In this document: piece by piece, positions 1 through 62,650 of the stretch
Layout: each line of letters begins with the position of its first letter
How positions within the stretch are numbered: the first letter of the stretch is position 1
Assembly: GCA_041659505.1 (NCBI GenBank)
Contig: JBAZYF010000001.1
Coordinates: 35,654-99,653, forward strand
DNA from: Parcubacteria group bacterium
Lineage (GTDB): Bacteria; Patescibacteriota; Minisyncoccia; Moranbacterales; UBA2206
DNA length: 64,000 nucleotides
Direction of reading: 5' to 3'
Notes under the pieces: generated by a model
Told to the model about the DNA's origin: nothing
Seen by the model: only the letters and a program-made list of their open reading frames with translations
The model's database searches: none
Position numbers and translations under genes: made by a program

Positions 1-50
1 CCGACTACCGTTGCCAATACTGCCAACACTACGATGATCTGTTTTCTCAT
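1..50 (-). CDS. N-terminal fragment of a secreted/membrane protein; gene continues off the window
   Basis: Reverse complement reads ggaggc-N7-ATG AGA AAA CAG ATC ATC GTA GTG TTG GCA GTA TTG GCA ACG GTA GTC. That is an RBS followed by a hydrophobic signal-like N-terminus running off the left edge. Confidence 0.3.
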   Translation of the reverse strand, partial: MRKQIIVVLAVLATVV

Positions 51-245
51 GATACTGCCTCCTTATGGGTTTTGAGTGTTTTTTATTGTAAACTTTTCCA
101 ACCACCAACCCCGAAACCAGCTGATTTGGCTAACTTTGGTGTTGGTGGCTAGAATTTTGTCAAAGAGCACTATTTCAAAATATACTACAACTTCTAACCA
201 TTTTTTGCAAATCATTCCTCAACTGGAACTTACCTACTATTTGCA

Positions 246-899
246 CTACCTTATCTCATGATAATGATCCAACGCGCGATATTCTGGCTCTTCTTTTCCG
301 AAAAAATAGAGATAACCGACTGTTCCGATTAGTCCCATTACAAATCCGATGAGAATATTCAAGGGGATATTCGGCGTGGCAGGATTTTGCGTCGTAACCG
401 GTCCGTCAATGACACTAATCACAATCTTATCTCCACCTCCATGATACTTCTGATTGTTGGTAGCCAGATTGCTCGCAATCGCTTGTGCCACTTTTTCCGC
501 TTCTTTTCTCGAAGGATCGAAAACGGAAATTTCAATAATTCCAGTATTGTTCACTTTTTTGACACTGACTTCTTTTTCCCATTCCTTTTTACGATCTTCC
601 TTATTGGTCGAATAAACATTCTTCACTCCGACCGGAGACTGCAATACATCATCAATAAAAGAATCAGTAAAGATGATTTTGGAAAAAATATCACTAAGAT
701 ATTCTGCCGACTTGGCAGCTGAGAAAGCGTCCACCTTATCTTCTGGTTGTTTTTGGACGACCAAGACACTGATGTCAGAGCGATATTTAGGTTTGATAAT
801 CGTGGAAATTGTAAACACACAAGCCGCCACGACAAAGGAAACCACGAAGATAACTTTCAGTTTTTGCTTGATGATTTTCCAAAAATTCTCTTGATTCAT
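246..899 (-). CDS. Polysaccharide chain-length determinant-like protein (Wzz/CpsC/YwqC family)
   Basis: 217 aa. N-terminal TM helix (VIFVVSFVVAACVF), a soluble middle, and a C-terminal proline-rich segment plus TM helix (NPATPNIPLNILIGFVMGLIGTVGYL) typical of Wzz-type co-polymerases. Confidence 0.45.
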   Translation of the reverse strand: MNQENFWKIIKQKLKVIFVVSFVVAACVFTISTIIKPKYRSDISVLVVQKQPEDKVDAFSAAKSAEYLSDIFSKIIFTDSFIDDVLQSPVGVKNVYSTNKEDRKKEWEKEVSVKKVNNTGIIEISVFDPSRKEAEKVAQAIASNLATNNQKYHGGGDKIVISVIDGPVTTQNPATPNIPLNILIGFVMGLIGTVGYLYFFGKEEPEYRALDHYHEIR

Positions 900-1127
900 A
901 ATATTTTCCTCGAATTATTACCTTAAATTCATAACCTAATATATTAGCAGAAATTCGTCCACTTGTCAATGGAAATCTACCGCTAGCCCACTTTTAGCCT
1001 AAATAAGGCCTATTTTGCCAATATTTTTAGGACTTTTATTCTTCCCAGGAACCAGACGACTACCTAGGAAAAAATCCCAGATAAACGCCTAAGTCCTATG
1101 TGGCACAGACCCAAAAATGATTAGAGC

Positions 1128-1160
1128 CCCGAAGAATAGATATTCCCGGGGCCCATATAA
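1128..1160 (-). terminator. Rho-independent terminator downstream of the LysM gene
   Basis: On the minus strand a GCCCCG/CGGGGC stem is followed by a T-rich tract. Confidence 0.35.
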
Positions 1161-1305
1161 TCCAAGAGGACGTTTCAAGTTTCGTCCAATCATTTCAGCA
1201 ATTCATTCAATGCTAATTGTCGTAAGCACTGTGAACGCTAGGTCACCTAATCGGCAACGAAATAATCAATGAAACTTAAAAGTTCTCTATTTGTTATCGT
1301 AAAAA

Positions 1306-2724
1306 CTACCTACCACCGCTTTGGCTGCCAAGGCTAGCCAGCACGATGTCCATCCGATCGTCAGGAGTGAACGGGTTGTTGTCAGACTGAGTTTCAACGA
1401 TCACAGTTGCGGGAGTATTCCCCTGATCCTGTTGACTGCCGAGACTAGCCATTACCTGATCCATTCTGTCATCAGGAGAATACGATTTTTTACTCAACGT
1501 CTCCTGGGACTGGATTTGATCAGTGGTGGTGGATGCGGTTATCGCAACACCATCTTCAACCACCGGATTAAATCCACTGGCCAAATGATTTCCATACAAG
1601 GCATTGATAGGTTCCTTGCTGGATAACCCAATGCCAACGCCGACACGCCCATCTGTGCTAGCATGGACTTCGGCAATAAGCGTTCCAATTGGAGTCCGCT
1701 GGCGAAGTTCTGACTTCGCCGCACCGGCGCCCATATTACTATGGACCCCTGCTCCAATAAGATTTCTCCATCGGAGATTTTCTGTTAATTGTTTTTCCAA
1801 GCCGATCCAAACATCCAAGGACGTTTGGTCGATCGGAGCGGATCCATTATTGGTAGATTGACCGATTCCTGTCCAGAAATCAGCAATCCCAATTGCCACT
1901 AGGTCAGGTTGGAGCTTATATTGAACTTCACCATAGGCACCAACACCTGCGCCATTTTGGCGAGTTATTGATTCAACCTTCTTGGTTCGTTGACTTTTTC
2001 CGGTCTCCTGGTAGCCAGCTCGGATTTTGAGCTGTTCATACCAAGGCCCCTCTGCATACGTAATACCTGCTTCCGGTGCGATTTTAGCATCGTAACCATC
2101 GGAAGGCGAATGACTCATGTTCCAGGTGGAAAAATTACCGAGAATTCCAAGCCCCAATGAAGTTGGGCTTGCCTGCTCTTTCTGCCAATACATAAACTCG
2201 CCAGTAATTCCCGAGCTTACAACTTGATTTTGCGAACCTGGCTTTTTCAAGTTGAACGTCGCCTTGCCAAGTGCCTCAAGCGCTGAAATACTATTACCAG
2301 AAGCAACCGCATTGTCACTGCTTTTGACGGTCGTTCTTTCTTTTTCATCAGTCTCAGTTGATACAGATGATGAAAGTCCATCCGTAATCAGATTAGAAGA
2401 CGTTGCCGTTACGTTTTTTGTATCAGTTGCAGAAACTTCAGCATTACTCGGCTGAGTACTGCCCTGGTAACTATTGACTTCAACGACCACGTTTTTTTGA
2501 CGACGCACGGGAATCATAAGTTTTTGACCCGGGTAAATTGTATTGGATTTAAGTCCGTTGACTTTCTTGATTTCCTGCCAACGAACACCCTTTTCTCTGC
2601 CAACCACTGAAAGGCAGTCCCCTTTTTTTACCACAATATATTCTTTAACATATTCTTCGGCGCTACAAATTGCTGCGCTAAAGATAATTGTGGCAGAAAG
2701 GATTAACGCTGCGAATTTTTTCAT
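1306..2724 (-). CDS. Secreted LysM domain protein with a long Ser/Thr/Gly-rich region
   Basis: Signal peptide MKKFAALILSATIIFSAAICSA. LysM motif (YIVVKKGDCLSVV...YPGQKLMIP). A low-complexity Ser/Thr-rich linker and a Gly/Ala-rich beta-rich C-terminal part. Two C-terminal repeats TPDDRMDQVMASLGSQ / TPDDRMDIVLASLGSQ. Confidence 0.6.
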   Translation of the reverse strand: MKKFAALILSATIIFSAAICSAEEYVKEYIVVKKGDCLSVVGREKGVRWQEIKKVNGLKSNTIYPGQKLMIPVRRQKNVVVEVNSYQGSTQPSNAEVSATDTKNVTATSSNLITDGLSSSVSTETDEKERTTVKSSDNAVASGNSISALEALGKATFNLKKPGSQNQVVSSGITGEFMYWQKEQASPTSLGLGILGNFSTWNMSHSPSDGYDAKIAPEAGITYAEGPWYEQLKIRAGYQETGKSQRTKKVESITRQNGAGVGAYGEVQYKLQPDLVAIGIADFWTGIGQSTNNGSAPIDQTSLDVWIGLEKQLTENLRWRNLIGAGVHSNMGAGAAKSELRQRTPIGTLIAEVHASTDGRVGVGIGLSSKEPINALYGNHLASGFNPVVEDGVAITASTTTDQIQSQETLSKKSYSPDDRMDQVMASLGSQQDQGNTPATVIVETQSDNNPFTPDDRMDIVLASLGSQSGGR

Positions 2725-2725
2725 G

Positions 2726-3661
2726 TCATCCTCCTTGCTGTAACTGATTTATGATAATCATCCTCTCGATTTCCGAGAGATATTTATTGACGAATAACAT
2801 ATCCTGTCTATTGATGCTCCCGCCCATGCTCCAGGCGATGGGTTTTTTTTCGCTTGCTCGATATAAATCAAAGAAAGCGGAAATACCCATTGAATATAAG
2901 TCGGGGGAAATATAAAACTCCCCCTCCTTTATCCATCGTTGAAAGAAGGTGTCTCCAGGGTTTATTCTGGCCACTTCTTTCATATCAGCAGTTGAGAGTG
3001 GACTAAAAAACTTCCAGCCCTCGGGAGTTGTGTATGGCCTCCACTTTTTCACACTCGCGTAAAAATGTTCCGCCACGGGAAGTTTGGACAACTCAGTCCC
3101 ATGCTTTGCAATAATTTCTTTTCGGAACTGAAAATCCTTTTTAAACCTTTCCCAGTCAAGCGGAAAGCCATTCTTTTCTCTCCCAAGCAGATTGAAGCCA
3201 AACTCCTGCATCGTGGAAAAAGCAATTGCCATTCCTTCTTCGATGCTTTTGCTATAGACAAGCGTCGAATACATTGCGACCTCGGTTTTTCCATCTGATC
3301 TTCTGATTAATTCACCCCAAGGGGTGAATATAATTTGAAGTTCATGCTCTCCGCCTTTTTTGTCGATTATCCAGCCAAACCAAGTGGTACGGCCCGGAGA
3401 CATTTCGGCTTTCAAGCCTTCTGGAAAAATTCCGGTCTTAGCCACGAAAGCTTCTCCTTCGATATCGACTCCGTCGACATTGTACACGCCAATGAAATAT
3501 GGTGGCGACCTTTTTATCTCAATCTCACTTTGCCCCTGACCAGTCACCTCATCTATTGGGGAATTAATTTTAATTCTGTTCTGCGAACAACTCGCAAGAG
3601 TCGCAATCGCTACCATAACCAACAAAACCTGAATAAAACTCTTACTTTTTATCATGATCAA
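2726..3661 (-). CDS. Hypothetical lipoprotein
   Basis: Signal peptide with lipobox (VAIATLASC|SQN). No recognisable catalytic motif. Confidence 0.5.
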   Translation of the reverse strand: MIMIKSKSFIQVLLVMVAIATLASCSQNRIKINSPIDEVTGQGQSEIEIKRSPPYFIGVYNVDGVDIEGEAFVAKTGIFPEGLKAEMSPGRTTWFGWIIDKKGGEHELQIIFTPWGELIRRSDGKTEVAMYSTLVYSKSIEEGMAIAFSTMQEFGFNLLGREKNGFPLDWERFKKDFQFRKEIIAKHGTELSKLPVAEHFYASVKKWRPYTTPEGWKFFSPLSTADMKEVARINPGDTFFQRWIKEGEFYISPDLYSMGISAFFDLYRASEKKPIAWSMGGSINRQDMLFVNKYLSEIERMIIINQLQQGG

Positions 3662-3962
3662 TCCTCCTCCGAAATATTGTTTTTGGATCAGAATTGATCC
3701 TATTTTTTTCTAACTATTTGGTTGTCAATGGACAATCCATAACAACCTCATGCCAATCCCGAAGTGTTCTGGACTGAATAAAAGATTGCTATTTGGACTT
3801 TTAAGATTAACATAGAACTCTAACAGAAAATTAGGCTTTTGTCAATCGTAATTGCCACGAAACCCATTTTATGCCTAAACAAGCCTTAATTAGCTAAAGC
3901 TTACCAGACTTTTTTAAAAATAGCCAAAATCTTCGCCAGGCCGGAAAAATGCCCAAAAAAGA

Positions 3963-4010
3963 AAAGCGCCCGCTCGGAAATGATATCCGAACGGGTGTTG
4001 ATTGTTTAAA
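3963..4010 (-). terminator. Rho-independent terminator at the end of the Hyf-like operon
   Basis: The minus strand reads CCCGTTCGG-loop-CCGAGCGGG followed by CGCTTTTCTTTTTTGGGCATTTTT. Confidence 0.45.
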
Positions 4011-4033
4011 TTCTACACAAAACTTGAAAACAT

Positions 4034-4663
4034 TTAGGAAGTAACAAAATGTTCCGCGTATTTATATGGATTGAAAATATAAGTATTTTCTTCCACTATT
4101 CCGCTTATAAGCTTTGCTCCGTGAAAAAAACTAAACACTCTGTCACTTTTTAACTGCAAGTGGGGAAATCCCGCCATAACCAATAGAGCGTTTAATCTTT
4201 TTTGCAGATCGGTACAAAAACGTATATGCGCAATATAGGCCATATGCACAACCTCTTGGATAGTATGCTTATGTTTCTTCGCCATCCCACAAGGAAAGTG
4301 AGTCGCAAGACAAAGCGTTTTTGTTTCCTTAGCTTCAAACAAGTTGGCAATGCTATAGAGAGCACTGTCCTCATGAAACTGCTCAAATCCACCAAAAAGT
4401 CCCGGGCAAAAATTGAGAGGTCCTCCCGGAGGTCCAGCTCCATGAATCCGCTCATTAAACTTCCTCAGATAGTCCAGAAGCTCAATATCCCCATCGGGAC
4501 AGTGATTCCAGACTCCACCATTGTTGGTAAAACCCAGCAATTCTTCTATGGAAAAAGCTTGTAGAACTTGAAACGCTTTCAACTGTTGAGTGTAAGCGTT
4601 ATCCTCCTCGGACATATAACTTTTCTTCTTAGTCAAGCTTGTCATAGCACTCCTTCTTCCCAA
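4034..4663 (-). CDS. Hypothetical Cys-containing protein, last gene of the Hyf-like operon
   Basis: 209 aa, soluble. Five Cys, two in CP dipeptides (NHCPDG, NFCPG, LCLATHFPCG, RFCTD). Lies downstream of the HycE-like gene on the same strand. No family recognised. Confidence 0.35.
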   Translation of the reverse strand: MGRRSAMTSLTKKKSYMSEEDNAYTQQLKAFQVLQAFSIEELLGFTNNGGVWNHCPDGDIELLDYLRKFNERIHGAGPPGGPLNFCPGLFGGFEQFHEDSALYSIANLFEAKETKTLCLATHFPCGMAKKHKHTIQEVVHMAYIAHIRFCTDLQKRLNALLVMAGFPHLQLKSDRVFSFFHGAKLISGIVEENTYIFNPYKYAEHFVTS

Positions 4664-4771
4664 TCATTAAAAGAACCAAAAGCCCGCCCATTGCAGGCTC
4701 CTCGAAGAACAACTAACCTTTATATACCTAAAATATGAAATAGTCAAGACTAAAAAAATCTCCATCACTTC

Positions 4772-6346
4772 CTAAAGATCATTTCCTGAATAGGACAGAT
4801 TGAAACTCTTGTTGATGAGAGGAAAATCCGGCACAATATTGCCTTTTCCGGCGTGACCTACGACCGTCCAGTTAATAAAAGATGGATCGCGCACATCCAC
4901 GCGCGTAATTTGACCATCTGAGTCCGTCACGACAAAATAGACAATCTCGCCCCTCCAGCCTTCACTGATCCCGAGGGCAAAACTGTTTTTTCGCAAAATC
5001 GCCGTTTTGGGATTTACCAGCTCCCCTGGCGCTTCGGCCAATTTTTCCAAAGCTTGTTTTAGAATTTCAAATGAAACGAAAACTTCCTTTATCCGCACAT
5101 GAAGCCGTGCAAAAACATCGCCCTCTTTTTCCAGCGCAATGCCAAAATTCAATTCCGGATAAGCGGCATGGGGATATTCGATCCTGGCATCATGGGCAAT
5201 GCCCAGTGCTCTGCCGGCTACGCCGACAACTCCATGATCAAGCGCTAATTGGCGATCGAGCCGACCAGTACTTTGCAAACGGTTGAGGAGCGTACTACTG
5301 TCATCGGAAATCTCAATCACTTCCGCAAAATCTTTTTTTATTTTCAAAAGTTTTTCTTGTAATTGTTTTCCCGCTTCCGCAGAAATATCTTTCGTTACCC
5401 CGCCAATCACATTCACTCCGCGCAAAAATCGACTGCCGGTCAAACTTTCATTCAGTTGCATGATCATTTCGCGCAGACGACCACCATTGCTTCCGCCAAA
5501 ACTGAATCCGGTATCGAGCATAATAAACCCGATGTCATTAAAATGATTTGCCAGCCGTTCCAATTCAGAAAAAATCACTCGCAGATATTTTGCTCGCGCG
5601 GAGACTTTAGTTTCGGCCAGATTTTCAATCGCCTGGCAAAAAGCCAAACTGTGCGTGAAAGAAGTGTCTCCGGAAACTCTTTCTGACAGGCGCACTTTTT
5701 CCGCCAAGGGCAATGTTTCAAAAAGTTTTTCAATTCCCTTATGCTTATAGCCCAGTTTCGGCTCCAAAAGAACCACTTCCTCTCCCACCACGCTAAAACG
5801 AAAATGTCCCGGTTCGATAATTCCGGCATGCACCGGACCGACGGGAATTTCATAGATTCCCTCCCCCTTTACTTTCAAAAATTCATAAGTTCCAGTCGCT
5901 TGGGCAGGACGTTCTTGCCAATTAAAATCTTTCCGTAAAGGAAAAACTCCCGCCGGCCAATTTTCATGCAAAAGCATCCCTCGCGCATTAGGATGGCCGA
6001 GTGGTTCAAGACCAAAAAAACTTTTTATCCGCCGTTCATAGCCGGACGCTTCATGAATTGCTTTGGTGATCGAAGGAAAGCCTTTGCCGTCTTGGATGGT
6101 AATGTAGGGCGTCAAAAAAACATTTTCCCCTGGCACGCCAAAAACATAGAAGATGCGAAAACCGATTCCCGCTTTTCTCTCATCCGTCGCCGTGATAGTT
6201 TTCAGTTGCAACTTGTGGTCAAAATACAACTCATTACAAACAGTCAAAAGTTCCGCGGTCGGGACAGCATAAGTCAAAACATTGCCATCCTGCTTGACGG
6301 AAAAACTTTTGGGAATATATTTTTCTTGGATTTCGCTTTGATTCAT
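4772..6346 (-). CDS. HycE/HyfG-like large subunit of a group-4 [NiFe]-hydrogenase (NuoC-NuoD fusion) lacking all four Ni-Fe ligand cysteines
   Basis: Aligns by eye to E. coli HycE: the NuoC-like N-terminal domain, the GPVHAGIIEPGHFRF motif, and RVSGDTSFTHS in place of RVCGICGFAHS. The C-terminus FNLSYSGNDL replaces LDPCYSCTDR. Confidence 0.8.
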   Translation of the reverse strand: MNQSEIQEKYIPKSFSVKQDGNVLTYAVPTAELLTVCNELYFDHKLQLKTITATDERKAGIGFRIFYVFGVPGENVFLTPYITIQDGKGFPSITKAIHEASGYERRIKSFFGLEPLGHPNARGMLLHENWPAGVFPLRKDFNWQERPAQATGTYEFLKVKGEGIYEIPVGPVHAGIIEPGHFRFSVVGEEVVLLEPKLGYKHKGIEKLFETLPLAEKVRLSERVSGDTSFTHSLAFCQAIENLAETKVSARAKYLRVIFSELERLANHFNDIGFIMLDTGFSFGGSNGGRLREMIMQLNESLTGSRFLRGVNVIGGVTKDISAEAGKQLQEKLLKIKKDFAEVIEISDDSSTLLNRLQSTGRLDRQLALDHGVVGVAGRALGIAHDARIEYPHAAYPELNFGIALEKEGDVFARLHVRIKEVFVSFEILKQALEKLAEAPGELVNPKTAILRKNSFALGISEGWRGEIVYFVVTDSDGQITRVDVRDPSFINWTVVGHAGKGNIVPDFPLINKSFNLSYSGNDL

Positions 6347-6356
6347 ATTAGTTAGG

Positions 6357-6531
6357 AGTTACACGTTTCCCCTCACAGCCGTATTTTCTAAAAAAATAAC
6401 TCGAACGCCCTTTTTTTCTTTTCAAATTTTTCCCTCTATCAACGGCAACCAGTGGAAAATTTTGAAGAAAAAAGGCATTCTCAGGCACGTTTTTTTAGAA
6501 AATACGGCTGACTCGGGCAAACACGTAAGTC
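6357..6531. mobile_element. MITE-like inverted-repeat element, family 1, copy A
   Basis: About 175 bp with ~40 bp imperfect terminal inverted repeats (...ACACGTTTCCCCTCACAGCCGTATTTTCTAAAAAAA / TTTTTTTAGAAAATACGGCTGACTCGGGCAAACACGTAAGT). The whole element matches 26684..26857 in inverted orientation. Confidence 0.75.
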
Positions 6532-6534
6532 ATA

Positions 6535-7980
6535 TTAGTAGACTAAACTGGCACTAGTTATTAGGGAATTTATTGTTGCAGGGATAAAAATACTCAAATA
6601 AACTAGAAGAACCACCAAGATGAGCACCGGAAAAATTGTCCAAACGCCAGACTCGCCAACCGGAACATTCTCTTCATTTTCCCCAAAAATCATCGCGACC
6701 ACATGGCGGAGGAAACCGACAAAGATCAATGCCAGCGCCAAGAGCGCAATAATTGTGACGGCAGGATGACTGCTGATCCCAGCGGACAGAATCGAAAATT
6801 CGGTGACAAAAATTCCAAACGGTGGCATACCAGTGATGGCCAAAAAGCCAATAAGAAACAAAATGCTCGTAACCGGCAAGACTTTGAGGACGCCTTTCAC
6901 TTTAGCAATTTTAGTGGAGCTATATTTCAAAAAGATATTGCCCGCTGACAAAAACAAAATTGATTTGGCCAAGGAGTGATAGATCATATGCAAGATTGCC
7001 GCGAAAATTCCCACACCACCAAATCCAAACCCTAGTGCCATCACGCCCATATGTTCGATGCTGGAATAGGCCAAGAGTCGTTTGTAATTTTTTTGGATGA
7101 AAATGATCGCAGCCGCGACAATAATTGAAATGATACCGAAAAAAATGAGCATCTGGGAAGAAAAATTTGCTCCCACAGCAAGATCCACAATCACTTTGAA
7201 CCGCAAGATTGCCAGAAATGCCACATTGAGGAGCACGCCAGAAAGCAAACTGCTAATTGGCACCGGTGCCTTGCTGTGGGCATCGGGTAGCCAAGTATGC
7301 ATCGGCACAAACCCGACCTTCGTTCCATAGCCAATCAGGATAAAGATAAAAGCAATCTTGGCAACAAACGGATCAAGACCAGAGGCGTTGACTAGTAGCG
7401 CATGCCAATTGACCAGGCCGTGATTTCCCGCCGCGAAAGAAGGGTAGAGAAAAATCAAAGTGCCAAAAAAAGCTAGTAAAAGTCCGACCGAGTTAACAAT
7501 CAAATATTTCCAAGCCGCTTCCATCGCCGATGGCTTGTTATAAAAACTGATCAAAAATGCCGTGGAAAGAGTAGTCGCTTCGATCATTACCCACATCAGG
7601 ATCGGATTGGTCGTGCTGATGGCAAAAAACATCGCAAGCAGAAATAGGTGCAAAAGGATGAAATATTCTCGCACCCGATGAAATCCGATAATGCCTTTTT
7701 TCACCTCCACTTGCAAATAGCCCGTAGAATACCAAGAAGCTACAAATCCGATGATCGCCACCAAAAGAAGCAGGATTGCTCCTAATGGATCGATGGAAAG
7801 ATAGGGTGTCCAAGCATAACTACCCTTTTGCGCCACGACCGACACCACAATCAGCGCTGAAATAAGCTCAATGGAAGAAGCCAAAATTGCAATCGTATTT
7901 AGCGGTTGAATCTTTTTCCTGACCAAAAAAGACAAGCCGGAAGCAATGAAAGGAATAAAGATGATAAGAAATAGAGCCAT
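6535..7980 (-). CDS. HyfF/HyfD/NuoN-like antiporter-type membrane subunit
   Basis: 481 aa polytopic protein with the NuoL/M/N/MrpD signature (GFVPMHTWLPDAHSKAPVPISSLLSGVLLNVAFLAILRF). Confidence 0.75.
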   Translation of the reverse strand: MALFLIIFIPFIASGLSFLVRKKIQPLNTIAILASSIELISALIVVSVVAQKGSYAWTPYLSIDPLGAILLLLVAIIGFVASWYSTGYLQVEVKKGIIGFHRVREYFILLHLFLLAMFFAISTTNPILMWVMIEATTLSTAFLISFYNKPSAMEAAWKYLIVNSVGLLLAFFGTLIFLYPSFAAGNHGLVNWHALLVNASGLDPFVAKIAFIFILIGYGTKVGFVPMHTWLPDAHSKAPVPISSLLSGVLLNVAFLAILRFKVIVDLAVGANFSSQMLIFFGIISIIVAAAIIFIQKNYKRLLAYSSIEHMGVMALGFGFGGVGIFAAILHMIYHSLAKSILFLSAGNIFLKYSSTKIAKVKGVLKVLPVTSILFLIGFLAITGMPPFGIFVTEFSILSAGISSHPAVTIIALLALALIFVGFLRHVVAMIFGENEENVPVGESGVWTIFPVLILVVLLVYLSIFIPATINSLITSASLVY

Positions 7981-7984
7981 AAAA

Positions 7985-8644
7985 TTAATCTTCTTTTAGG
8001 TGAGACATCTTAGTTACATCAAGCGTCTCCATCTGCTTATAAATCATCGAGGTGAAGGTTGCCGAAATCATTATCCAAACTGCGATATCAAAAATTATGC
8101 CCAATTCCAATCCAGGTGTCTGTTCCAGTCCGGACATTATGGCAAAAGAAACAATGCCATTTTCCAAGGACAGCACTCCAATCGCCTGAGACAGGGCACC
8201 TTTGCGATTAATCAAAAGGAAAATTGATCCCAGAATTGTCGCGATGGAAAGTAGCATCGCATTAGAATTCTCTGGAGCGATTACAGTCAAGGGAGCAAAA
8301 AAACGCGAATAAGTCACTGCTGTTATCACCGCTAGAATAATCAAAGTCAAAGGACCATTGAGATAGGTGCTAGCGGAAAATTTTATATGATTTTTCTTGA
8401 TCAGCTTTCTGAAAAAATGAGGAGCAATGATTACTTTAACAACAAACATGAGAATCGCCACCAAAAAAATCAGCCAAGAGAAATCAGCCAGCGCGGCGCT
8501 AATGAAAAAAACAAAAATAACTAAAGACTGAACGAGGTATAGCGCCACGACAGAAGTACTTTTCTTGGCCAGATGCATAAAAATGACTGAGGCAAAAATC
8601 AGAATTTCTAAGAAAAATAGAATTTGTGGTGTAAGAGGAAACAT
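7985..8644 (-). CDS. HyfE-like small membrane subunit
   Basis: 219 aa, about 7 TM helices. The size and its position between the HycD-like and HyfF-like genes match hydrogenase-4 component E. Assignment rests mainly on synteny. Confidence 0.5.
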   Translation of the reverse strand: MFPLTPQILFFLEILIFASVIFMHLAKKSTSVVALYLVQSLVIFVFFISAALADFSWLIFLVAILMFVVKVIIAPHFFRKLIKKNHIKFSASTYLNGPLTLIILAVITAVTYSRFFAPLTVIAPENSNAMLLSIATILGSIFLLINRKGALSQAIGVLSLENGIVSFAIMSGLEQTPGLELGIIFDIAVWIMISATFTSMIYKQMETLDVTKMSHLKED

Positions 8645-8648
8645 AAGT

Positions 8649-9575
8649 TTAAGCGATTAAAATAATAGCGATTACTCCCAGGATGAATGAGGTGAACAGG
8701 AGATCAGGCAGGCGGAAAAATCTAAACTTAGCGATACTTGATTCCAGCGTTGCCACAAAAAGACAAAGCAGCAGGGTCTTGATCAAAAACAACATTAGTG
8801 CGATAAAAAGAGCTGCTCCAGAAAAAGACGTCGCCAATCCCCAAGGGAAAAATAGATTAGCACCAAGGGAAAGAAAAATCAGAAATTTATTCGCCGCTGC
8901 CCACTCAATAAGCGCCAAACGTTTGCCGGAATATTCCAAAATCATCGCCTCATGGATCATGGTCAGTTCCAGATGCGTCGAGGGATTGTCGAAAGGAAAA
9001 CGCGCCGTCTCGGCGAGCATCGCAATGACATAGGCCAAAAAAGCCAGCGCCACAGGTGCAAAAAGACCCAGTGGTAGCTGCGAAACAGCGCTCGTGATTG
9101 AAAATAGATTGGTCGAATGAGCCACCAATGCCAGTGCCAACAGTGAAAAAATCAACCCGCCTTCGGTGAGCGCCGCTACGGTCATTTCCCGACTTGATCC
9201 AAAACCACCAAATGCTCCACCCGTATCCATCCCGGCCAGGGCGAGAAAAAAAGTGCTCAGCGCGATCAAATACACGATCGTCAGAAAATCACCAATGATG
9301 TTTCCTGGGAACAGTCCGGTAAAAAATGGGATACTCGCCCCGACCACGAGCGTCACAGCAAAAATCAGATAAGGCGCAAAACGAAAGATCCAAGAAGCAT
9401 CCTCGCTGATGATTTCATCTTTGTGGAATAACTTCCAGAGATCTTGATAGGGCTGGAAAACACTTGCGCCGAGCCTGTTTTGAAAACGCGCTTTTATCTT
9501 TCTGGTCACGCCGATAAAAAGCGGCGAGAGCGCTGGAACTAAGATTAATTGAATTGCAATAAATAGCACTGACAT
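8649..9575 (-). CDS. HycD/HyfC/NuoH-like membrane subunit
   Basis: 308 aa. The N-terminus (MSVLFIAIQLILVPALSPLFIGVTRKIKARFQNRLG...YQDLWKLF...DASWIFRFAPY) aligns closely with E. coli HycD. A PFDNPSTHLELTMIHEAMILEYSG segment matches the NuoH loop motif. Confidence 0.8.
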   Translation of the reverse strand: MSVLFIAIQLILVPALSPLFIGVTRKIKARFQNRLGASVFQPYQDLWKLFHKDEIISEDASWIFRFAPYLIFAVTLVVGASIPFFTGLFPGNIIGDFLTIVYLIALSTFFLALAGMDTGGAFGGFGSSREMTVAALTEGGLIFSLLALALVAHSTNLFSITSAVSQLPLGLFAPVALAFLAYVIAMLAETARFPFDNPSTHLELTMIHEAMILEYSGKRLALIEWAAANKFLIFLSLGANLFFPWGLATSFSGAALFIALMLFLIKTLLLCLFVATLESSIAKFRFFRLPDLLFTSFILGVIAIILIA

Positions 9576-9581
9576 AAATTT

Positions 9582-18854: not shown

Positions 18855-19034
18855 TGTCATTCCCGCGAAGGCGGGAATCCAGGTTCCACTTGCCCTAAAC
18901 CCTGGAAAATCGAATTATAAATCCCCTAACTTCTTATTATCAACCAACAAATCCCGTTTTTCTTTTCTTATCACCTGAGGTGCCTGGATTCCCGCCGGAG
19001 TTTATCCTCGTGTAGACGGGGGCGGGAATGACAC
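18855..19034. mobile_element. MITE-like element, family 2, copy 1, between atpF and atpH
   Basis: TGTCATTCCCGCGAAGGCGGGAATCCAGGTTCCAC ... CACCTGAGGTGCCTGGATTCCCGCC ... GGGCGGGAATGACAC. A near-identical architecture occurs at 34207..34366. Confidence 0.7.
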
Positions 19035-19040
19035 AGGAGC

Positions 19041-19529
19041 TTACCTAATTGCTTTTTCGATTAACTCTTTATCTTTTTCCTTATCCAATTTCTCCCCAAT
19101 AATCTTCTCCGTCGCTAAAACTACCAAATTTGCAATCTCACCTTTCACTTCCGAGAGCATCTTATTTTTTTCTTGCTCGATCTGACTCTTGGCGCCAACT
19201 AGCAGTTTCTCGCCCTGGTTTCTCGCTTCAAGCACGATACTCATCGAATTAGCCTTAGCCTGATCTTCGGCAGTTTTAATAATTTCTTGCGCTTCTTTTT
19301 TTGCCTTAGCCATGACTGCTTTTTCTTTTTCAACAATCTCTTCCAGCTTCTTTCCGGCAGCATCAGCGTCTTCGAGACCTTTTTCAATCTTGTTCGTCCG
19401 ACTGTTGAGCGTCTTCAAAACCGGCTTGTAGGCGAATTTGTAAAGCACCCAAAGGACGATGGCAAAATTGACCATCTGCGCCACCAAGAGGTTGACCTCG
19501 ATATGAAATGTTTTGATGAGTTCATCCAT
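19041..19529 (-). CDS. atpF: Fo ATP synthase b subunit
   Basis: 162 aa. A single N-terminal TM helix followed by a long charged coiled coil. Confidence 0.8.
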   Translation of the reverse strand: MDELIKTFHIEVNLLVAQMVNFAIVLWVLYKFAYKPVLKTLNSRTNKIEKGLEDADAAGKKLEEIVEKEKAVMAKAKKEAQEIIKTAEDQAKANSMSIVLEARNQGEKLLVGAKSQIEQEKNKMLSEVKGEIANLVVLATEKIIGEKLDKEKDKELIEKAIR

Positions 19530-19670
19530 AATTATATTGCTTCATTGTTAAATTGTTAAATTGTTTTTTTAAACAATGAAGCAATTTAACAATTTAACCA
19601 TTTCTTAATTTAGCGTTCTTATCTCGATTTCCCTCTACTAAAAAAGAGAAACCGAATAAATTCGCTAGAA

Positions 19671-19895
<225 letters not shown>

Positions 19896-19970
19896 CTACT
19901 CTGACGGTCGACTATTTTTATTATCTTTAAAGTCGCCGTGAGAATAAATTAAAAAAATTAATTAACCCTG

Positions 19971-20831
19971 CTAATGCTCATGCTGTTCTACTGCGATTGT
20001 CATATATACCAGTGCTAGTATCGCAAAAATGAGCGCCTGAATGATACCCACAATCATTTCTAAAAACATAAACGGCAAAGGCAAGGCATAGGCAAACAGC
20101 GCCATCATCGAAGCCAACAGCACCTCTCCGGCAAAAATATTGCCAAAAAGCCGGAATGTGAGCGAAGCCACTTTAGCAAATTCACTAATCACCTCGACCA
20201 GCCCCACAAAAACCTTGATCGGATTAACGAGCACAACCGTATAATCCTTGCGGATTTTTCCGGGGATTTCCAAAAGCAATTTCACATTCACAAATTTATT
20301 GAAATAATTCCAAGCTCCTACAACCAGCACCCCCATCACGTGAGACGCGATGACTGCAATCAGCGCCAGTGCTAATGTTGTGTTGATGTCTGCAGTGCCT
20401 CCGCGGAGAAGCGGGATAAATAAATGATGTCCACCCTCTGTTTCATTAAAACCGATCGTCCCCATTCCAGGAATCAGTCCCAGCCAGTTGTTCACAAAAA
20501 TGAATAAAAAAAGCGCCAAAGAGATGGGCAAAAACTTTTCTGATTTTTTGCGTGATCCAGTCACGCTATCTGCCATTTCCAAGGCCTTTTCCAAAAGCAA
20601 TTCAAAAATATTTTGCACGCCTCTAGGTACTTTTTTAAGTTTTCTACCGACGGACACAAGAAAAATGACTAAAATAAAAACTGCCACCCAGCTGGCAAGC
20701 AGCGAATTAGTGACAGTGAGATGGCCGATATGCCCCAACGGTTCAGCAAACAGCGTCGCTTCATGACTCGCATCAGCATTTGGCGTTTGAGCAATTTCCT
20801 GGCTATTCGTTGTGACTGTTTGTTCTGCCAT
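19971..20831 (-). CDS. atpB: Fo ATP synthase a subunit
   Basis: 286 aa polytopic. LTFRLFGNIFAGEVLL matches the conserved Arg-containing helix of subunit a. Confidence 0.9.
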   Translation of the reverse strand: MAEQTVTTNSQEIAQTPNADASHEATLFAEPLGHIGHLTVTNSLLASWVAVFILVIFLVSVGRKLKKVPRGVQNIFELLLEKALEMADSVTGSRKKSEKFLPISLALFLFIFVNNWLGLIPGMGTIGFNETEGGHHLFIPLLRGGTADINTTLALALIAVIASHVMGVLVVGAWNYFNKFVNVKLLLEIPGKIRKDYTVVLVNPIKVFVGLVEVISEFAKVASLTFRLFGNIFAGEVLLASMMALFAYALPLPFMFLEMIVGIIQALIFAILALVYMTIAVEQHEH

Positions 20832-20849
20832 AATTATTCATTACTTATA

Positions 20850-21006
20850 TCCCCTTCTCCATTAGGGAGAAGGTGCCCGAAGGGCGGATGAGGGAGAAGT
20901 CTTTCAATAACCACCCTCAATACTCATAGCACTTTTTTTATATCAACACCCTTTTCCCTCACCTGTCACGAGTACGTGACATCCTCTCCCTAAGGGCGAG
21001 GAGGAT
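20850..21006. mobile_element. MITE-like element, family 3, copy 1
   Basis: Left arm CCCCTTCTCCATTAGGGAGAAGGTGCCCGAAGGGCGGATGAGGGAGAAG. Right arm CCCTTTTCCCTCACCTGTCACGAGTACGTGACATCCTCTCCCTAAGGGCGAGGAGG. The arms are mutually inverted. A homolog lies at 52680..52837. Confidence 0.65.
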
Positions 21007-21286
21007 TTTCTGAATTATTTTTTAATTGTTTCTTTTCATCAGCTTCCTTGTCGATCTGTTTCATTGCCTCCAATGAGTCCTTGACTATTCCGTAAGTTGA
21101 AACAACAAGAGCCACTCCCACACACAGCAGAAACAATTTCGGCTCAGTGGAATATCTTTTGTCCAGCCACTTTCCCAGAAATAATGCGATAATGACTGGC
21201 CCGCCGATCCAACCACTCAGTCGTCCGAACAAAACCAAACTTGGCTGCCACCACAGCATCTTTGTTTCCTTTTTCTTACTATTCAT
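20990..21286 (-). CDS. AtpZ/AtpI-like small membrane protein at the head of the ATP synthase operon
   Basis: 98 aa. WWQPSLVLFGRLSGWIGGPVIIALFLGKWLDKRY resembles the AtpZ (PF09527) pattern. The C-terminal codons overlap the family 3 element. Confidence 0.5.
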   Translation of the reverse strand: MNSKKKETKMLWWQPSLVLFGRLSGWIGGPVIIALFLGKWLDKRYSTEPKLFLLCVGVALVVSTYGIVKDSLEAMKQIDKEADEKKQLKNNSENPPRP

Positions 21287-26683: not shown

Positions 26684-26857
26684 ACTTACGCACTTGACCG
26701 AGTCAGCCGTGTTTTCTTAAAAAATCCTGTCTGAGAATGCCTTTTTTCTTCAAAATTTTCCATTGGCTGCCTTTGATAGAGGGAAAATTTTGAAAAGAAA
26801 AAAGAGCGTTCGAGTTATTTTTTTAGAAAACACGGCTGCGAGGCAAAACACGTATAT
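26684..26857. mobile_element. MITE-like element, family 1, copy B, inverted relative to copy A
   Basis: Its reverse complement aligns base-for-base with 6357..6531 over its whole length, roughly 85-90% identical by eye, including the CAGCCGTRTTTTCTAAAAAA terminal repeats. Confidence 0.75.
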
Positions 26858-34213: not shown

Positions 34214-34366
34214 TCCCGCGAAGGCGGGAATCCAGGTTCCACTATTTATAAACCCTAAAAAATCGAATTATAAATTTTCTAACTTCTATTTTCTAATCAT
34301 TAAATCTCGTTTTTCTTTTTTTATAACCTGAGGTGCCTGGATCCCCGCCTCCGCGGGGATGACACG
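34207..34366. mobile_element. MITE-like element, family 2, copy 2
   Basis: TGTGTCATTCCCGCGAAGGCGGGAATCCAGGTTCCACT ... CCTGAGGTGCCTGGATCCCCGCCTCCGCGGGGATGACAC. Covers the HD-gene start codon and the last ~27 codons of the U32 gene. The U32 C-terminus reads ...RVIPAEAGIQAPQVIKK from the repeat. Confidence 0.7.
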
Positions 34367-35644
34367 TTGGATTACTTTCCTCACCAAACTCCCGCTTTCT
34401 AATTTCCGATCAAACTCGAAATAATATTCCTTATTGTGTCCACCGTCTGCCACCAGTACTGCGTTTTTATTGTTATCTAAAATCTTTTTTATCTTGAGTT
34501 TAATGTTTTCTTTGGGCGTGATAGCTTCTAAGCTGTCCTCGATTGAGATATGATTATGCACCCGCAAAATATTCAGTTTGTCTTCCAGTGATTTCACCTC
34601 ACCCACAAACTGAAATTTAGCCGGATTATTCTTATTTTCAAAATTATGCTCCGGCTCGCGTCCCAACAGAAAACCGGTCGAATATCCACGATGCACCAAA
34701 TTATCCAACTCCGTTTTTTGTTTTTTTATAATTGCTTTAATTTCCTTTTCTGGCGCATCATTTTCCAAAGCATCCAGCACCGCGCGATAAGCGCGTGTCA
34801 CAATCGCCAAATAGTAGGCGCTCTTGGCTCGCCCTTCAATCTTGAACGACGCCACACCCGCCTCTCGAAGTTCCGAGAGGTGTGCCAGCAAATTCATATC
34901 ATAACTATTGAAAAAATAGGTCCCGTGCGTGTCCTCCTCCACATCCATCGCATAACGCTTCTGATCATCAATCACATTCATCTCAAAATAGTCATCTCCA
35001 AAATTTTGTTTTTTGATTTTTGATTTTTGATTTTTGGAATGATATGCCCACCGGCACGGCTGAGAACAATCTCCCAGGTTGGCACTGCGATCTGTCATCC
35101 ATTTTGACAAAATGCAACGGCCGGAATAACTCATACACATCGCGCCATGGACAAAATATTCCAGCTCAATATTTTTCGATTGCTGACTAATCTCTTTGAT
35201 TTCTTTGAGCGTCACTTCCCGCGCCAGAATAATTCTTTTCACTCCTTGCGCGCGCCAAAATTCCACCGCTGCCGAGTTGGTCGCGTTAGCCTGCGTGGAA
35301 AGATGAATCTCACACTCCGGCCAATATTTCTGGATGAAAAGAATGATCCCCGGGTCGCTCGCAATGATCGCATCCACTTTCAGTTTTTTTAAGTATTGGA
35401 TATGCTCTTTGATTTTTGCCAAATGCTGATTATGCGCATAAATGTTGAGCGTCACATAAATTTTCTTCTTTCGTTTGTGCACATATTCCACCGCCTCAGC
35501 CAAATCTTCTTTGGAAAACCGATTGATCCGCACCCGCAAAGAAAAATCCGGCACGCCGCAATATACAGCGTCCGCGCCAAAAGCCAGGGCATATTTAAGT
35601 TTCTCCAGATCACCTGCTGGAGCAAGTAGCTCGATTTTTTTCAT
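34286..35644 (-). CDS. Peptidase U32 family protein (RlhA/YhbU-like)
   Basis: IELLAPAGDLEKLKYALAFGADAVYCG and FKIEGR motifs. The C-terminal ~27 residues are encoded by the repeat element. Confidence 0.75.
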   Translation of the reverse strand: MKKIELLAPAGDLEKLKYALAFGADAVYCGVPDFSLRVRINRFSKEDLAEAVEYVHKRKKKIYVTLNIYAHNQHLAKIKEHIQYLKKLKVDAIIASDPGIILFIQKYWPECEIHLSTQANATNSAAVEFWRAQGVKRIILAREVTLKEIKEISQQSKNIELEYFVHGAMCMSYSGRCILSKWMTDRSANLGDCSQPCRWAYHSKNQKSKIKKQNFGDDYFEMNVIDDQKRYAMDVEEDTHGTYFFNSYDMNLLAHLSELREAGVASFKIEGRAKSAYYLAIVTRAYRAVLDALENDAPEKEIKAIIKKQKTELDNLVHRGYSTGFLLGREPEHNFENKNNPAKFQFVGEVKSLEDKLNILRVHNHISIEDSLEAITPKENIKLKIKKILDNNKNAVLVADGGHNKEYYFEFDRKLESGSLVRKVIQRVIPAEAGIQAPQVIKKEKRDLMIRK

Positions 35645-44275: not shown

Positions 44276-44361
44276 GGAGAGGTGGCTGAGTGGCTGAAAG
44301 CACCACACTGCTAACGTGGCAAGGGGTAAAACCCTTCGAGGGTTCAAATCCCTCCCTCTCC
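44276..44361 (+). tRNA. tRNA-Ser (anticodon GCT)
   Basis: GGAGAGG acceptor, long variable arm, anticodon loop cTGCTaa, T-arm GGTTCAAATCC, 3' acceptor CCTCTCC-G. Confidence 0.85.
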
Positions 44362-44365
44362 GCCT

Positions 44366-44640
44366 TCGCCACGCCGTAGCTTCAGCGAAGGCGGGCTTCG
44401 CCAAAGCTACGGCATGGCTACGGCGTGACAAGTCCGCTCAGGACTCAGCGAAGGCGGGCTTCGCCAAAGCTACGGCATGGCTACGGCGTGACAAGTCCGC
44501 TCAGGACTCAGCGAAGGCGGGCTACGGCATGGCTACGGCGTGACAAGTCCGCTCAGGACTCAGCGAAGGCGAGCTTCGCCAAAGCTACAGCGTAACTACG
44601 GCGTGACGCAGTCCGCAAGAAACCATGCGAAAGCGGGATT
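44366..44640. repeat. GC-rich tandem repeat array (about 63-bp unit, about 4 copies) after tRNA-Ser(GCT)
   Basis: The unit CAGCGAAGGCGGGCTTCGCCAAAGCTACGGCATGGCTACGGCGTGACAAGTCCGCTCAGGACT is repeated head-to-tail. One copy lacks TTCGCCAAAG. Confidence 0.75.
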
Positions 44641-44673
44641 TACTACGCTACAATATTCTCAAAATAAAAAGCT

Positions 44674-44904: not shown

Positions 44905-44913
44905 AAAACAATG

Positions 44914-45176: not shown

Positions 45177-45194
45177 TAGTTAAAATAAATAATT

Positions 45195-55627: not shown

Positions 55628-55641
55628 CACAAAAGAATATC

Positions 55642-55714: not shown

Positions 55715-55737
55715 CGAGAAGTTAAAGTTTTCAGAGT

Positions 55738-62641: not shown

Positions 62642-62650
62642 TTTGCCTTC

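Follow-up and report, generated by a model that had tools for sequence, protein, structure and literature searches.

An Ehr-type gene cassette without a canonical redox cofactor ligand set adjoins the F1Fo ATP synthase operon in a Parcubacteria-group genome

The Ehr family, defined by Coppi (2005) and Marreiros (2013) in the wording quoted by later papers (PMC6349859, PMC10284858, PMC4758237, and PMC7894505), combines a group 4-like large subunit devoid of the Ni-Fe cysteines with NuoB-, NuoH-, and HyfE-like genes and two antiporter-like genes. Described representatives include the Ehr of Geobacter sulfurreducens (EhrA-S, GSU0739-45), Nitrospira, and Margulisbacteria, and a CPR Ehr clade without metal-binding cysteines was reported by Jaffe et al. 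in 2020 (PMC7304191). A cassette with this gene content is present in the 64-kb stretch of DNA analyzed here (64,000 nucleotides of a Parcubacteria-group MAG, referred to as the window), and its large subunit is a member of the published Ehr family (Table 1). It shares with the described complexes the NuoC-NuoD fusion with an S-x-S-G pattern at the Ni-Fe positions and the same HyfB, HyfC (NuoH), HyfE, and HyfF membrane subunits. In a distance-based neighbor-joining tree without bootstrap, the Cys-bearing enzymes branch at the base, and a single derived clade unites all S-x-S-G sequences, that of the window among them, which places the window with the Ehr large subunits and apart from true hydrogenases. 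The CPR Ehr clade to which the window belongs is monophyletic in this tree and also holds members of the Thermoleophilia, Bdellovibrionales, Lentisphaerae, Firestonebacteria, Fibrobacteria, Endomicrobiales, and Thermodesulfobacteriota.

The window and its clade differ from the described Ehr complexes in several respects. Wherever the small-subunit gene was captured in other Ehr loci (Nitrospira, Verrucomicrobia, Bacillota, and Methanomassiliicoccales), its four cluster-ligand positions read CCCC, whereas they read TCDD in the window and [T/S/D][C/E][D/G]D in its clade. Retention of the EhrS cluster ligands, as in the Geobacter/Nitrospira/Margulisbacteria type, may not belong to the Ehr definition, and it is not seen here. 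Many described complexes have a NuoI-like 2x[4Fe-4S] domain, whereas the window's clade has no ferredoxin domain; in addition, the small-subunit gene has been relocated to first position in the operon, and there is linkage to atp genes. The loss of the Ni-Fe site in CPR Ehr is already known, and this observation alone adds nothing to the literature. New are the loss of the small-subunit Fe-S site and the atp linkage, neither of which was found described in the literature searched, where Coppi (2005) and Marreiros (2013) were represented by quotation rather than full text, and it is the operon-level picture that matters.

Table 1. Features of the cassette and its surroundings (positions in the window)
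Feature	Position	Strand	Basis or remark
Terminator-like hairpin followed by a T-run	4678..4702	-	70 nt past the large-subunit stop codon
Large subunit, NuoC-NuoD fusion, HycE/HyfG/EhrL-like, 524 aa	4772..6346	-	Pfam, PDB alignment, homologues, AlphaFold/Foldseek
Palindromic repeat element, 135 nt	6376..6510		21-nt perfect inverted arms
HyfF/NuoN-type antiporter-like subunit, 481 aa	6535..7980	-	PF00361
HyfE-like small membrane subunit, 219 aa	7985..8644	-	NCBIfam NF008556 "hydrogenase 4 membrane subunit," E = 1.5e-15, below cutoff
HyfC/HycD/NuoH-type membrane anchor of the peripheral arm, 308 aa	8649..9575	-	PF00146
HyfB/HycC/NuoL-type antiporter-like subunit, 682 aa	9582..11630	-	PF00361
Small subunit, NuoB/HycG/EhrS-like, 176 aa, operon gene 1	11684..12214	-	PF01058, E = 2e-25
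Promoter-like site TTGACA-17-TATGCT	12460..12488	-	Consensus match only; lies between atpC and the small-subunit gene, which are 286 nt apart
Complete F1Fo ATP synthase operon (atpI-like, a, c, b, delta, alpha, gamma, beta, epsilon)	12501..21286	-	Pfam matches, nine genes

The large-subunit ORF starts with ATG, and its product combines an N-terminal NuoC-like domain (PF00329, residues 28 to 146, E = 2e-16) with a NuoD/large-subunit domain (PF00346, E = 9e-44). Its closest solved relative is Escherichia coli HycE (7z0s_E, E = 1.3e-74), to which residues 24 to 523 align. RVCGICGFAH and LDPCYSCTD of HycE correspond to RVSGDTSFTH and FNLSYSGND, with Ser225, Thr228, Ser518, and Gly521 at the positions of the Ni-Fe cysteines and with Asp227 and Asn516 as Ehr-specific replacements. 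Neither ligand motif of the group 4 [NiFe] hydrogenases (L1, RxCGxCxxxH; L2, DPCxxC) is present in RVSGDTSFTH and NLSYSGND. The replacement of the four cysteines by Ser, Thr, Ser, and Gly, pointed out in the preliminary description, is borne out by this alignment and by the 120 closest database homologues, 102 of which have STSG at the four positions, the remaining 18 having SSSG, SASG, ATSG, or STSA. Distant relatives with 42 to 47% identity also keep S-x-S-G, and the four-residue pattern is far from chance. In an alignment to 2fug_4, the equivalents of the NuoD quinone-site residues His38 and Tyr87 (Thermus thermophilus Nqo4 numbering) are Ile177 and Gly226.

Two further features had been listed alongside the loss of the metal site. 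The NuoC-like domain and GPVHAGIIEPGHFRF (residues 170 to 184), the latter described as a proton-pathway motif, are indeed kept, but GPVHAGIIEPGHFRF and PDFPLINKSF are inherited family signatures common to Cys-bearing hydrogenases. The C-terminal maturation peptide of HycE is absent, as had been stated; however, this is unrelated to metal loss and uninformative because Cys-bearing hydrogenases of the same family, including the nearest ones, also lack it and end three residues past the last Cys, in ...ELCYSCTDL or ...CLDR. The protein itself ends in NDL, three residues after Gly521 and not four as first counted. Superposition on HycE, which had been suggested as a check, gave a close fit of the AlphaFold (AF2) model (pLDDT 87.9) to 7z0s_E in Foldseek (TM 0.91/0.90; rmsd 3.1 Å), and the TM score against E. 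coli NuoCD was about 0.85, in agreement with a HycE-type fold.

Conservation of the large subunit across the 120 homologues averages 0.75 overall, 0.92 to 0.95 in the two motif regions, and 0.99 in the beta1-beta2 loop region. The former active-site loops seem conserved beyond the needs of a passive lid, which could reflect ligand or metal binding and is counted against the functional reading preferred below. The dN/dS ratio, the second check that had been suggested, is about 0.13 to 0.25 in the least-saturated pairs; dS is saturated in nearly all pairs, and the usable ratios are best read as upper bounds. Purifying selection is as strong on both cap subunits as on the membrane subunits. The large-subunit gene is intact, strongly conserved, and not a pseudogene. 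Motif conservation, dN/dS, and the fold match together support the proposal that selection has kept the large subunit without its Ni-Fe site. The suggested parallel with NuoD, namely, a loss of the Ni-Fe site independent of complex I and from a different ancestor, here a Hyf-like group 4 hydrogenase, fits the tree, in which true hydrogenases are basal and the S-x-S-G clade is derived.

The small subunit aligns with HycG (7z0s_G, 7e-32) and MbhJ (6cfw_J), and at the four [4Fe-4S] ligand positions it has Thr56, Cys59, Asp123, and Asp153; the first, third, and fourth cysteines are replaced and the second is kept. The four-Cys proximal [4Fe-4S] site of group 4 [NiFe] small subunits is thus missing. 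All of the 120 closest homologues have [T/S/D][C/E]DD and lack at least three of the four cysteines. C59 is retained in 98% of close homologues, and Cys-free variants (DADD, SEGD, TEGD, and NEGD) occur in related loci. An alternative four-Cys site was ruled out, C23, C69, and C162 not being conserved. Among the clade-specific fixed changes, C153D is the single defining one in the small subunit, and those in the membrane subunits are few and conservative. The small-subunit sequence is 100% identical to a protein from a Parcubacteria-group MAG. It is accepted by NF005012, a generic model of the NuoB subfamily (121 versus 116 bits); apart from this match, all NuoD and NuoB NCBIfam equivalog scores are far below the cutoffs.

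No 2x[4Fe-4S] ferredoxin-type subunit (HycF/HyfH/EchF/MbhN/NuoI) is present in the operon, and the CxxCxxCxxxC motif is absent from all frames of the window and from all Cys-less loci. Clustering of flanking ORFs across the loci, together with the 64-kb window, revealed no recurring redox partner gene; the only genes that clustered were those for ATP synthase, generic ABC transporters, and a response regulator, and most of the remaining clusters were antisense artifacts. With the small-subunit ligands replaced and the ferredoxin-type subunit missing, therefore, no canonical redox site is left, and the cassette retains none of the canonical ligand sets for redox cofactors.

The membrane arm presents a different picture. 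The HyfB-type subunit matches the NCBIfam model "hydrogenase 4 subunit B" above its cutoff (698 bits) and HycC (7z0s_C, 2.5e-82), and all clade members have its TM5 Glu147, TM7 Lys229, TM8 Lys260, TM11 His354/Lys358, and TM12 Glu413. The HyfF-type subunit matches "hydrogenase 4 subunit F" below the cutoff (463 bits) and has invariant TM5 Glu134, TM7 Lys221, and TM11 His335/Lys339, with Glu or Lys in TM12; its TM8 position is Asn, as it is in true hydrogenases of the family. Both are MrpA/MrpD-like, with the TM5 Glu, TM7/TM8 Lys, and TM12 Lys/Glu of Mrp-type subunits. In the HyfC-type anchor (HycD 7z0s_D, 6e-52), nine acidic or polar residues (D117, R129, E130, E189, D196, E203, E209, E214, and Q41) are invariant or conservatively replaced, and Asp45 is partly Asn within the clade and in some true hydrogenases. 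The HyfE-like subunit, for which no Pfam or PDB sequence match was found, has an invariant Glu161; HyfE is related to NuoK according to the FHL-2 literature (PMC13645896). The charged-residue axis (Lys/Glu/His) of the membrane arm is thus intact.

The six genes run in the order small subunit, HyfB, HyfC, HyfE, HyfF, and large subunit, and every related locus of sufficient length carries the cassette intact. The terminator-like hairpin probably marks the end of the operon. The palindromic repeat lies in an unusually long gap of 188 nt between hyfF and the large-subunit gene, has a second copy at positions 26704 to 26838, and, with a predicted RNA fold of -66 kcal/mol (z = -8.9), probably folds into a long hairpin within the operon transcript. 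A 209-aa ORF (4034 to 4663) and the downstream 311-aa and LysM proteins were judged to lie outside the system, having no relatives beside other cassettes.

The F1Fo operon lies directly upstream of the cassette on the same strand, and across CPR genomes the cassette is recurrently linked to F1Fo genes. Such genes adjoin it in 16 of about 65 Cys-less loci (among them L007, L012, L017, L024, L025, L090, L095, L100, L104, L107, L120, L125, L144, and L154), compared with none of about 60 other Ehr or hydrogenase loci (Fisher P of about 1e-5; P < 1e-9 against a chance expectation of 2 to 3%), the linked loci not being phylogenetically independent. The gap between atpC and the small-subunit gene is only 9 to 12 nt in L100 and L120, and in a Saccharibacteria MAG (L017) the cassette is inserted between atpG and atpD, inside the atp operon. 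The linkage is absent from genome loci named as non-CPR lineages, the metagenome contigs carrying no taxonomy. It extends to about a quarter of the loci, a share that is also counted against the preferred functional reading. A Na+-coupled ATP synthase was considered and rejected because in the c subunit (...AFAEAVAIY...) the Glu is not followed by Ser/Thr and helix 1 lacks the Gln. Judged against the Ilyobacter-type Na+ motif, the c subunit is presumably of the H+ type.

What such a complex might do can be framed from these sequences and by analogy. We give about an even chance to its being a redox-independent, Mrp-like secondary cation/proton translocator that works with the F1Fo ATPase. It would have arisen from a Hyf-like group 4 [NiFe] hydrogenase by losing its cofactors in two steps, the first being the loss of the Ni-Fe site, common to all Ehr, and the second, in the window's clade, the loss of the small-subunit [4Fe-4S] ligands and the ferredoxin-type subunit. 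Electron transfer could then not drive the complex, which would instead exchange ions or interconvert ion gradients. Its partner would be the H+-ATPase, thought to run in reverse in fermentative CPR and to energize the membrane. Instead of being a catalytic site, the conserved cap, in which Ser/Thr/Asp line the places once taken by Cys, would be a lid with structural and conformational roles and might also gate the HyfC channel or act as its sensor. A precedent is the Na+/H+ antiport carried out by deactive complex I (PMC3464577); for CPR, which retain the F-ATPase without a respiratory chain, reverse operation of this enzyme to drive antiporters has been suggested (PMC11665869). More tentatively, and with somewhat less than an even chance, a whole complex I-type clade may have shed every redox cofactor, kept the coupling apparatus, and become a partner, both genetically and functionally, of the F1Fo ATPase in CPR.

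It is unlikely, though worth weighing, that the former Ni-Fe pocket, the cluster site (Thr/Asp-Cys-Asp-Asp), or both bind a nonredox ligand or a hard metal (Mg2+, Mn2+, Zn2+, or Ca2+). The cap would then be the active module, with a nonredox reaction or ligand binding driving pumping or with a pH or cation sensor gating the antiporter-like subunits. Consistent with this, little or no variation is seen at S225, G226, D227, S229, H232, and S518 of the large subunit or at D123 and D153 of the small subunit, and the cap equals the membrane arm in conservation. Acidic residues have also been gained, Asp227 family-wide in Ehr and Asp123 and Asp153 (Asp56 in some members) in the window's clade, with C153D fixed. 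However, the ligand, metal, or reaction cannot be named, and Gly or Ala in some members (SEGD, DADD, and DGDD) means that no single coordination geometry is conserved. Moreover, mechanical reasons alone make buried interface loops of the complex I type highly conserved.

A pump that is still redox driven, the usual assumption for Ehr, with electrons from a partner encoded elsewhere (formate dehydrogenase or ferredoxin) and unconventional cofactor ligation, seems very improbable. In its favor, C59 is retained, and a few known proteins have Fe-S clusters with an aspartate ligand. However, the four ligand positions hold one Cys at best and in some clade members none, and there is no alternative conserved Cys set, ferredoxin-type subunit, or recurring redox gene nearby; the quinone-site His and Tyr of NuoD are likewise replaced. 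An FDH-Ehr hypothesis has been put forward for other Ehr complexes (PMC6349859), and Ehr is more abundant on formate in Geobacter (PMC7894505), whereas electron transport chains are generally missing from CPR (PMC11665869). That the cassette is a decaying hydrogenase relic, made of pseudogenes or drifting neutrally, can hardly be right: all cofactor ligands are lost and a repeat element has been inserted before the large-subunit gene, but the cassette is intact wherever a related locus is long enough, the 120 closest homologues, from CPR and non-CPR lineages, share 63 to 77% identity, dN/dS is low, conservation is highest in the former motif regions, the functional residues of the membrane arm are invariant, and no frameshifts were seen in clade orthologues, which refutes the pseudogene alternative raised in the preliminary description.

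These findings bear on how CPR genomes are interpreted. The cassette genes carry the database names "NADH-quinone oxidoreductase subunit" or "Ni,Fe-hydrogenase III." "NADH dehydrogenase (complex I) subunits" have been counted in >30% of freshwater CPR MAGs (PMC9166423), and NADH dehydrogenase has been listed among possible respiratory components in soil CPR (PMC8407418). If those counts represent the Ehr-type cassette, NADH oxidation or H2 handling would be impossible because there is no ligand set for Ni-Fe, Fe-S, or quinone, and the inferences would need correcting. That nearly all CPR possess an F-type ATP synthase in the absence of a respiratory chain is a puzzle of CPR biology (PMC11665869), and a conserved, putatively ion-translocating complex behind or inside the atp operon is a concrete candidate for the partner of this enzyme. 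If the more tentative reading of a redox-free clade partnered with the F1Fo ATPase is true, the cassette would convert ATP-driven proton export into cation or pH homeostasis in respiration-less cells or, alternatively, make a host- or environment-derived ion gradient usable by the ATP synthase. It would also be a natural "redox-free complex I" in which to study control of the antiporter modules by the cap. For work on the mechanism of complex I and the membrane-bound hydrogenases, such a naturally cofactor-free relative, its membrane arm intact and its cap highly conserved, would help to tell conformational coupling apart from redox chemistry.

Among characterized complexes, E. coli Hyd-3 (HycE/G/C/D, 7Z0S) is the best sequence and fold match for four subunits, and Hyd-4/FHL-2 (HyfB-I) shares the gene order hyfB-C-(D)-E-F-G. 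In contrast to both, the cassette has no Ni-Fe ligands, small-subunit cluster, HycF/HyfH, HyfD, formate dehydrogenase, or HyfA. It resembles the Q-module (NuoCD/NuoB/NuoH) and NuoL/M/N of complex I in fold, in descent from a hydrogenase that lost Ni-Fe, and in the Lys/Glu/His axis, but it has neither the quinone-site His/Tyr and N2 cluster ligands that mark NuoD and NuoB nor NuoI and the N-module. MBS/Mbx of Pyrococcus furiosus (6U8Y) is likewise a group 4 relative that has ceased to make H2 and has a complex I-like architecture (6u8y_L match, 6e-31). MBS is described as reducing sulfane sulfur by means of iron-sulfur clusters (PMC8165549), whereas the window's complex has no cluster ligands. 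With the Mrp antiporters, the cassette shares two MrpA/MrpD-like subunits with conserved charged residues and the lack of redox input. None of the six cassette genes has a Pfam or NCBIfam match to the small subunits MrpB, C, E, F, and G; these are thought to handle Na+, and their absence is counted against the translocator reading. The cassette instead has a NuoH-like subunit and a NuoB/NuoCD-like cap, and it is not a member of the Mrp family, although by analogy it may work in an Mrp-like manner.

Pfam assigns the large subunit of the cassette a NuoC-like domain at the N-terminus (PF00329, residues 28-146) plus a NuoD/large-subunit domain (PF00346); among solved structures, E. coli HycE is its closest relative (7z0s_E; E=1.3e-74). 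Residue-by-residue alignment pairs RVSGDTSFTH with RVCGICGFAH and FNLSYSGND with LDPCYSCTD of HycE, which places the Ni-Fe cysteines at Ser225, Thr228, Ser518, and Gly521 and bears out the replacements named in the preliminary description. The protein ends in NDL, three residues past Gly521 and not four as first counted. An AlphaFold2 model built from 80 sequences (pLDDT 87.9; pTM 0.91) was superposed on HycE (TM 0.91/0.90) and E. coli NuoCD (TM ~0.85); the predicted fold matches that of HycE. [quoted passage not shown] The cysteine loss in the large subunit is confirmed but already published: the window belongs to a CPR organism, and Jaffe et al. 2020 (PMC7304191) described a clade of CPR Ehr proteins devoid of these cysteines, so that this finding is a rediscovery. 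A Parcubacteria-group MAG encodes a protein identical (100%) to the window small subunit.

In total, 80 related loci fetched from species-representative genomes were surveyed by script. Some members of the same family (in Brocadia, a Planctomycetota MAG, Thermincola, Clostridiales, and Peptococcaceae) are true hydrogenases that possess all eight cysteines together with a ferredoxin domain. They share with the window large subunit GPVHAGIIEPGHFRF (its residues 170-184) and PDFPLINKSF, and they end in ...ELCYSCTDL or ...CLDR, which indicates that the "fold-defining motifs" and the missing C-terminal maturation peptide are ancestral traits of the branch. The motifs are therefore present as described but are no sign of metal loss, and the absent peptide cannot be tied to metal loss either. 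Specific to Ehr proteins are S-G-D-x in place of the hydrogenase C-G-[IVA]-C, by which Asp227 was gained, and N-L-S in place of E-L-C. A distance tree puts the Cys-bearing enzymes at the base and gathers every S-x-S-G protein into one clade. The sole disrupted gene found in the survey is hyfC of a classic Ehr locus in an Eubacteriales MAG (L062, 2472-3303), which is split into three ORFs and represents a true pseudogene or an assembly error.

Alignment with HycG and MbhJ places the [4Fe-4S] ligand positions of the window small subunit at Thr56, Cys59, Asp123, and Asp153. All 120 closest small-subunit homologues carry [T/S/D][C/E]DD, with no alternative conserved Cys set, and remoter members of this Cys-less clade carry DADD, DCGD, SEGD, TEGD, NEGD, or DGDD; variants such as DADD and SEGD mean that some have no Cys at the ligand positions. 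In contrast, other Ehr loci with a small-subunit gene (Nitrospira including N. moscoviensis, Verrucomicrobia, Bacillota, Methanomassiliicoccales, and Elusimicrobia) are all CCCC, often with a 2x[4Fe-4S] domain fused or adjacent, and have that gene last, whereas it is first in Cys-less cassettes. A few loci have the gene first yet are CCCC and look intermediate. The Cys-less clade is monophyletic in the distance tree, with CPR and non-CPR hosts intermixed, and across the six proteins C153D alone is both clade-fixed and non-conservatively different from other Ehr complexes. Cofactors were thus lost in steps, Ni-Fe first and then the remaining cluster. Two Ehr-type cassettes occur in tandem in several genomes (L005/L006, Lentisphaerae, 1-12331; L083, Verrucomicrobiia; and L119); in the Lentisphaerae, a second, divergent Ehr operon flanks the Cys-less cassette, with its large subunit (ATSG type) on one side and its small-subunit-ferredoxin fusion (CCCC) on the other.

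Features of the window discussed in the text
Feature	Position	Strand	Remark
209-aa ORF	4034-4663	minus	directly downstream of operon, between two terminator-like hairpins
Large subunit (HycE-like)	4772-6346	minus	524 aa, last gene of six-gene operon
Palindromic repeat, copy 1	6376-6510		~135 nt, hyfF-to-large-subunit gap
HyfF-like	6535-7980	minus	operon gene
HyfE-like	7985-8644	minus	operon gene
HyfC/NuoH-like	8649-9575	minus	operon gene
HyfB-like	9582-11630	minus	operon gene
Small subunit	11684-12214	minus	first gene of operon
atpG-atpD gap	14360-15108		~750 nt, inverted repeat 14871-15045
atpH-atpA gap	17613-18439		~830 nt, inverted repeat 17620-17739
99-aa ORF	17816-18115	opposite to atp operon	in atpH-atpA gap
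Palindromic repeat, copy 2	26704-26838		~135 nt, orientation opposite to copy 1
Peptidase-U32 family gene	34286-35644	minus	22 kb from cassette
tRNA clusters	55555-55917; 44276-45267		listed as four and three tRNAs
Type IV pilus/T2SS genes	57687-63972

The operon has a promoter-like site upstream and a terminator-like hairpin downstream. HyfB retains TM5 Glu, TM7 Lys, TM8 Lys, TM11 His/Lys, and TM12 Glu; HyfF retains TM5 Glu, TM7 Lys, TM11 His/Lys, and TM12 Glu or Lys; HyfC retains its conserved acidic residues and HyfE its Glu161. Across the clade these residues are invariant, with few conservative replacements, as in true hydrogenases. A rewired ion path may be reflected in two differences: at HyfE position 174, 21 of 28 Cys-less clade members have Glu and nearly all other Ehr/hydrogenase relatives have Gly, and HyfF residue 394 (TM12) is Glu (14) or Lys (16) within the clade and always Glu elsewhere. 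The first copy of the palindromic repeat, which has 21-nt perfect terminal inverted arms and resembles a MITE or REP element, occupies an unusually long gap (predicted hairpin -66 kcal/mol, z=-8.9). The 209-aa ORF has no Pfam/NCBIfam match and no relative beside any other cassette. A Patescibacteria locus also has a peptidase-U32 family gene (L001, 2087-3292), immediately upstream of the cassette region; some U32 proteins take part in O2-independent hydroxylation reactions. The rest of the window contains housekeeping genes typical of CPR genomes.

In the window, a complete F1Fo atp operon precedes the Ehr operon on the same strand. The cassette follows atpGDC in two Magasanikbacteria loci (L007 and L024), is inserted between atpG and atpD in Saccharibacteria (L017; gaps of ~5 and 24 nt), lies on the opposite strand in the stretch separating atpD from atpC in Daviesbacteria (L012), and is convergent with atp genes in Vogelbacteria (L025). 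In a further, independent set of metagenome contigs, each centred on the small subunit and excluding those with too little flanking sequence, atp genes adjoined 10 of 29 Cys-less loci (7 of them with the atp genes upstream on the same strand, two with atpC-to-small-subunit gaps of only 9-12 nt) and 0 of 15 CCCC loci. The pooled counts were 16 of ~65 Cys-less loci against 0 of ~60 others (Fisher p ~1e-5; p<1e-9 against a chance expectation of 2-3%); they were tallied by eye from locus tables, and the loci are phylogenetically non-independent, which makes the p-values rough. The linkage spans several small-subunit variants, CPR classes, and topologies. The atpG-atpD junction, gapped in the window, is the exact insertion point in L017. 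A response regulator near the cassette in L001, L013, L017, L021, and L022, accompanied in L001 (11543-13187) by a histidine kinase, could be due to chance or a regulatory link. No description of this cofactor-free, ATP-synthase-linked Ehr variant was found in a literature search that did not extend to the two founding Ehr papers, and the small-subunit change may have been noted before.

At the sequence level, the complex lacks the canonical Ni-Fe and Fe-S ligand sets and the quinone-binding residues of complex I, His38 and Tyr87 of NuoD aligning with Ile177 and Gly226. Since all of these are missing, electron transfer is probably excluded as the energy source, and the complex would act as a redox-independent, Mrp-like cation/proton translocator paired with the ATPase. 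The main alternative is that the former cofactor pockets, lined by Ser/Thr/Asp, bind a ligand or metal, which would turn the cap into an active driver or sensor. More than 8,000 database proteins match the large subunit; the best 120 (63-77% identity, ~522 aa, from CPR phyla and other lineages) carry STSG (102), SSSG (13), SASG (3), ATSG (1), or STSA (1). Both ex-motif regions (0.92 and 0.95) and the beta1-beta2 loop region (0.99) are their most conserved stretches (overall 0.75), and the ligand-motif regions are likewise the best-conserved parts of the small subunit in its 120 closest homologues. A still-redox enzyme is unlikely; a ferredoxin-type CxxCxxCxxxC is absent from all frames of the window and from all loci whose small subunit is Cys-less, and the genes flanking the related cassettes include no recurring redox partner. 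A decaying relic is also unlikely: the large-subunit gene is not a pseudogene, as STSG in 102 of 120 close homologues and a dN/dS of ~0.13-0.25 (least diverged pairs; synonymous sites saturated) indicate, the proposal that selection keeps the structure without the metal site stands, and the cap is not vestigial because its mean pairwise identity within the clade (small subunit 0.63, large subunit 0.56) is on par with that of the membrane subunits (0.45-0.60).

The Mrp-like translocator is suggested by the intact antiporter-like modules and the ATPase linkage, together with one precedent and one current view: complex I cut off from its redox input (the deactive form) shows Na+/H+ antiport (PMC3464577), and in CPR bacteria that do not respire the ATPase may work in reverse, driving antiporters or pH homeostasis (PMC11665869).
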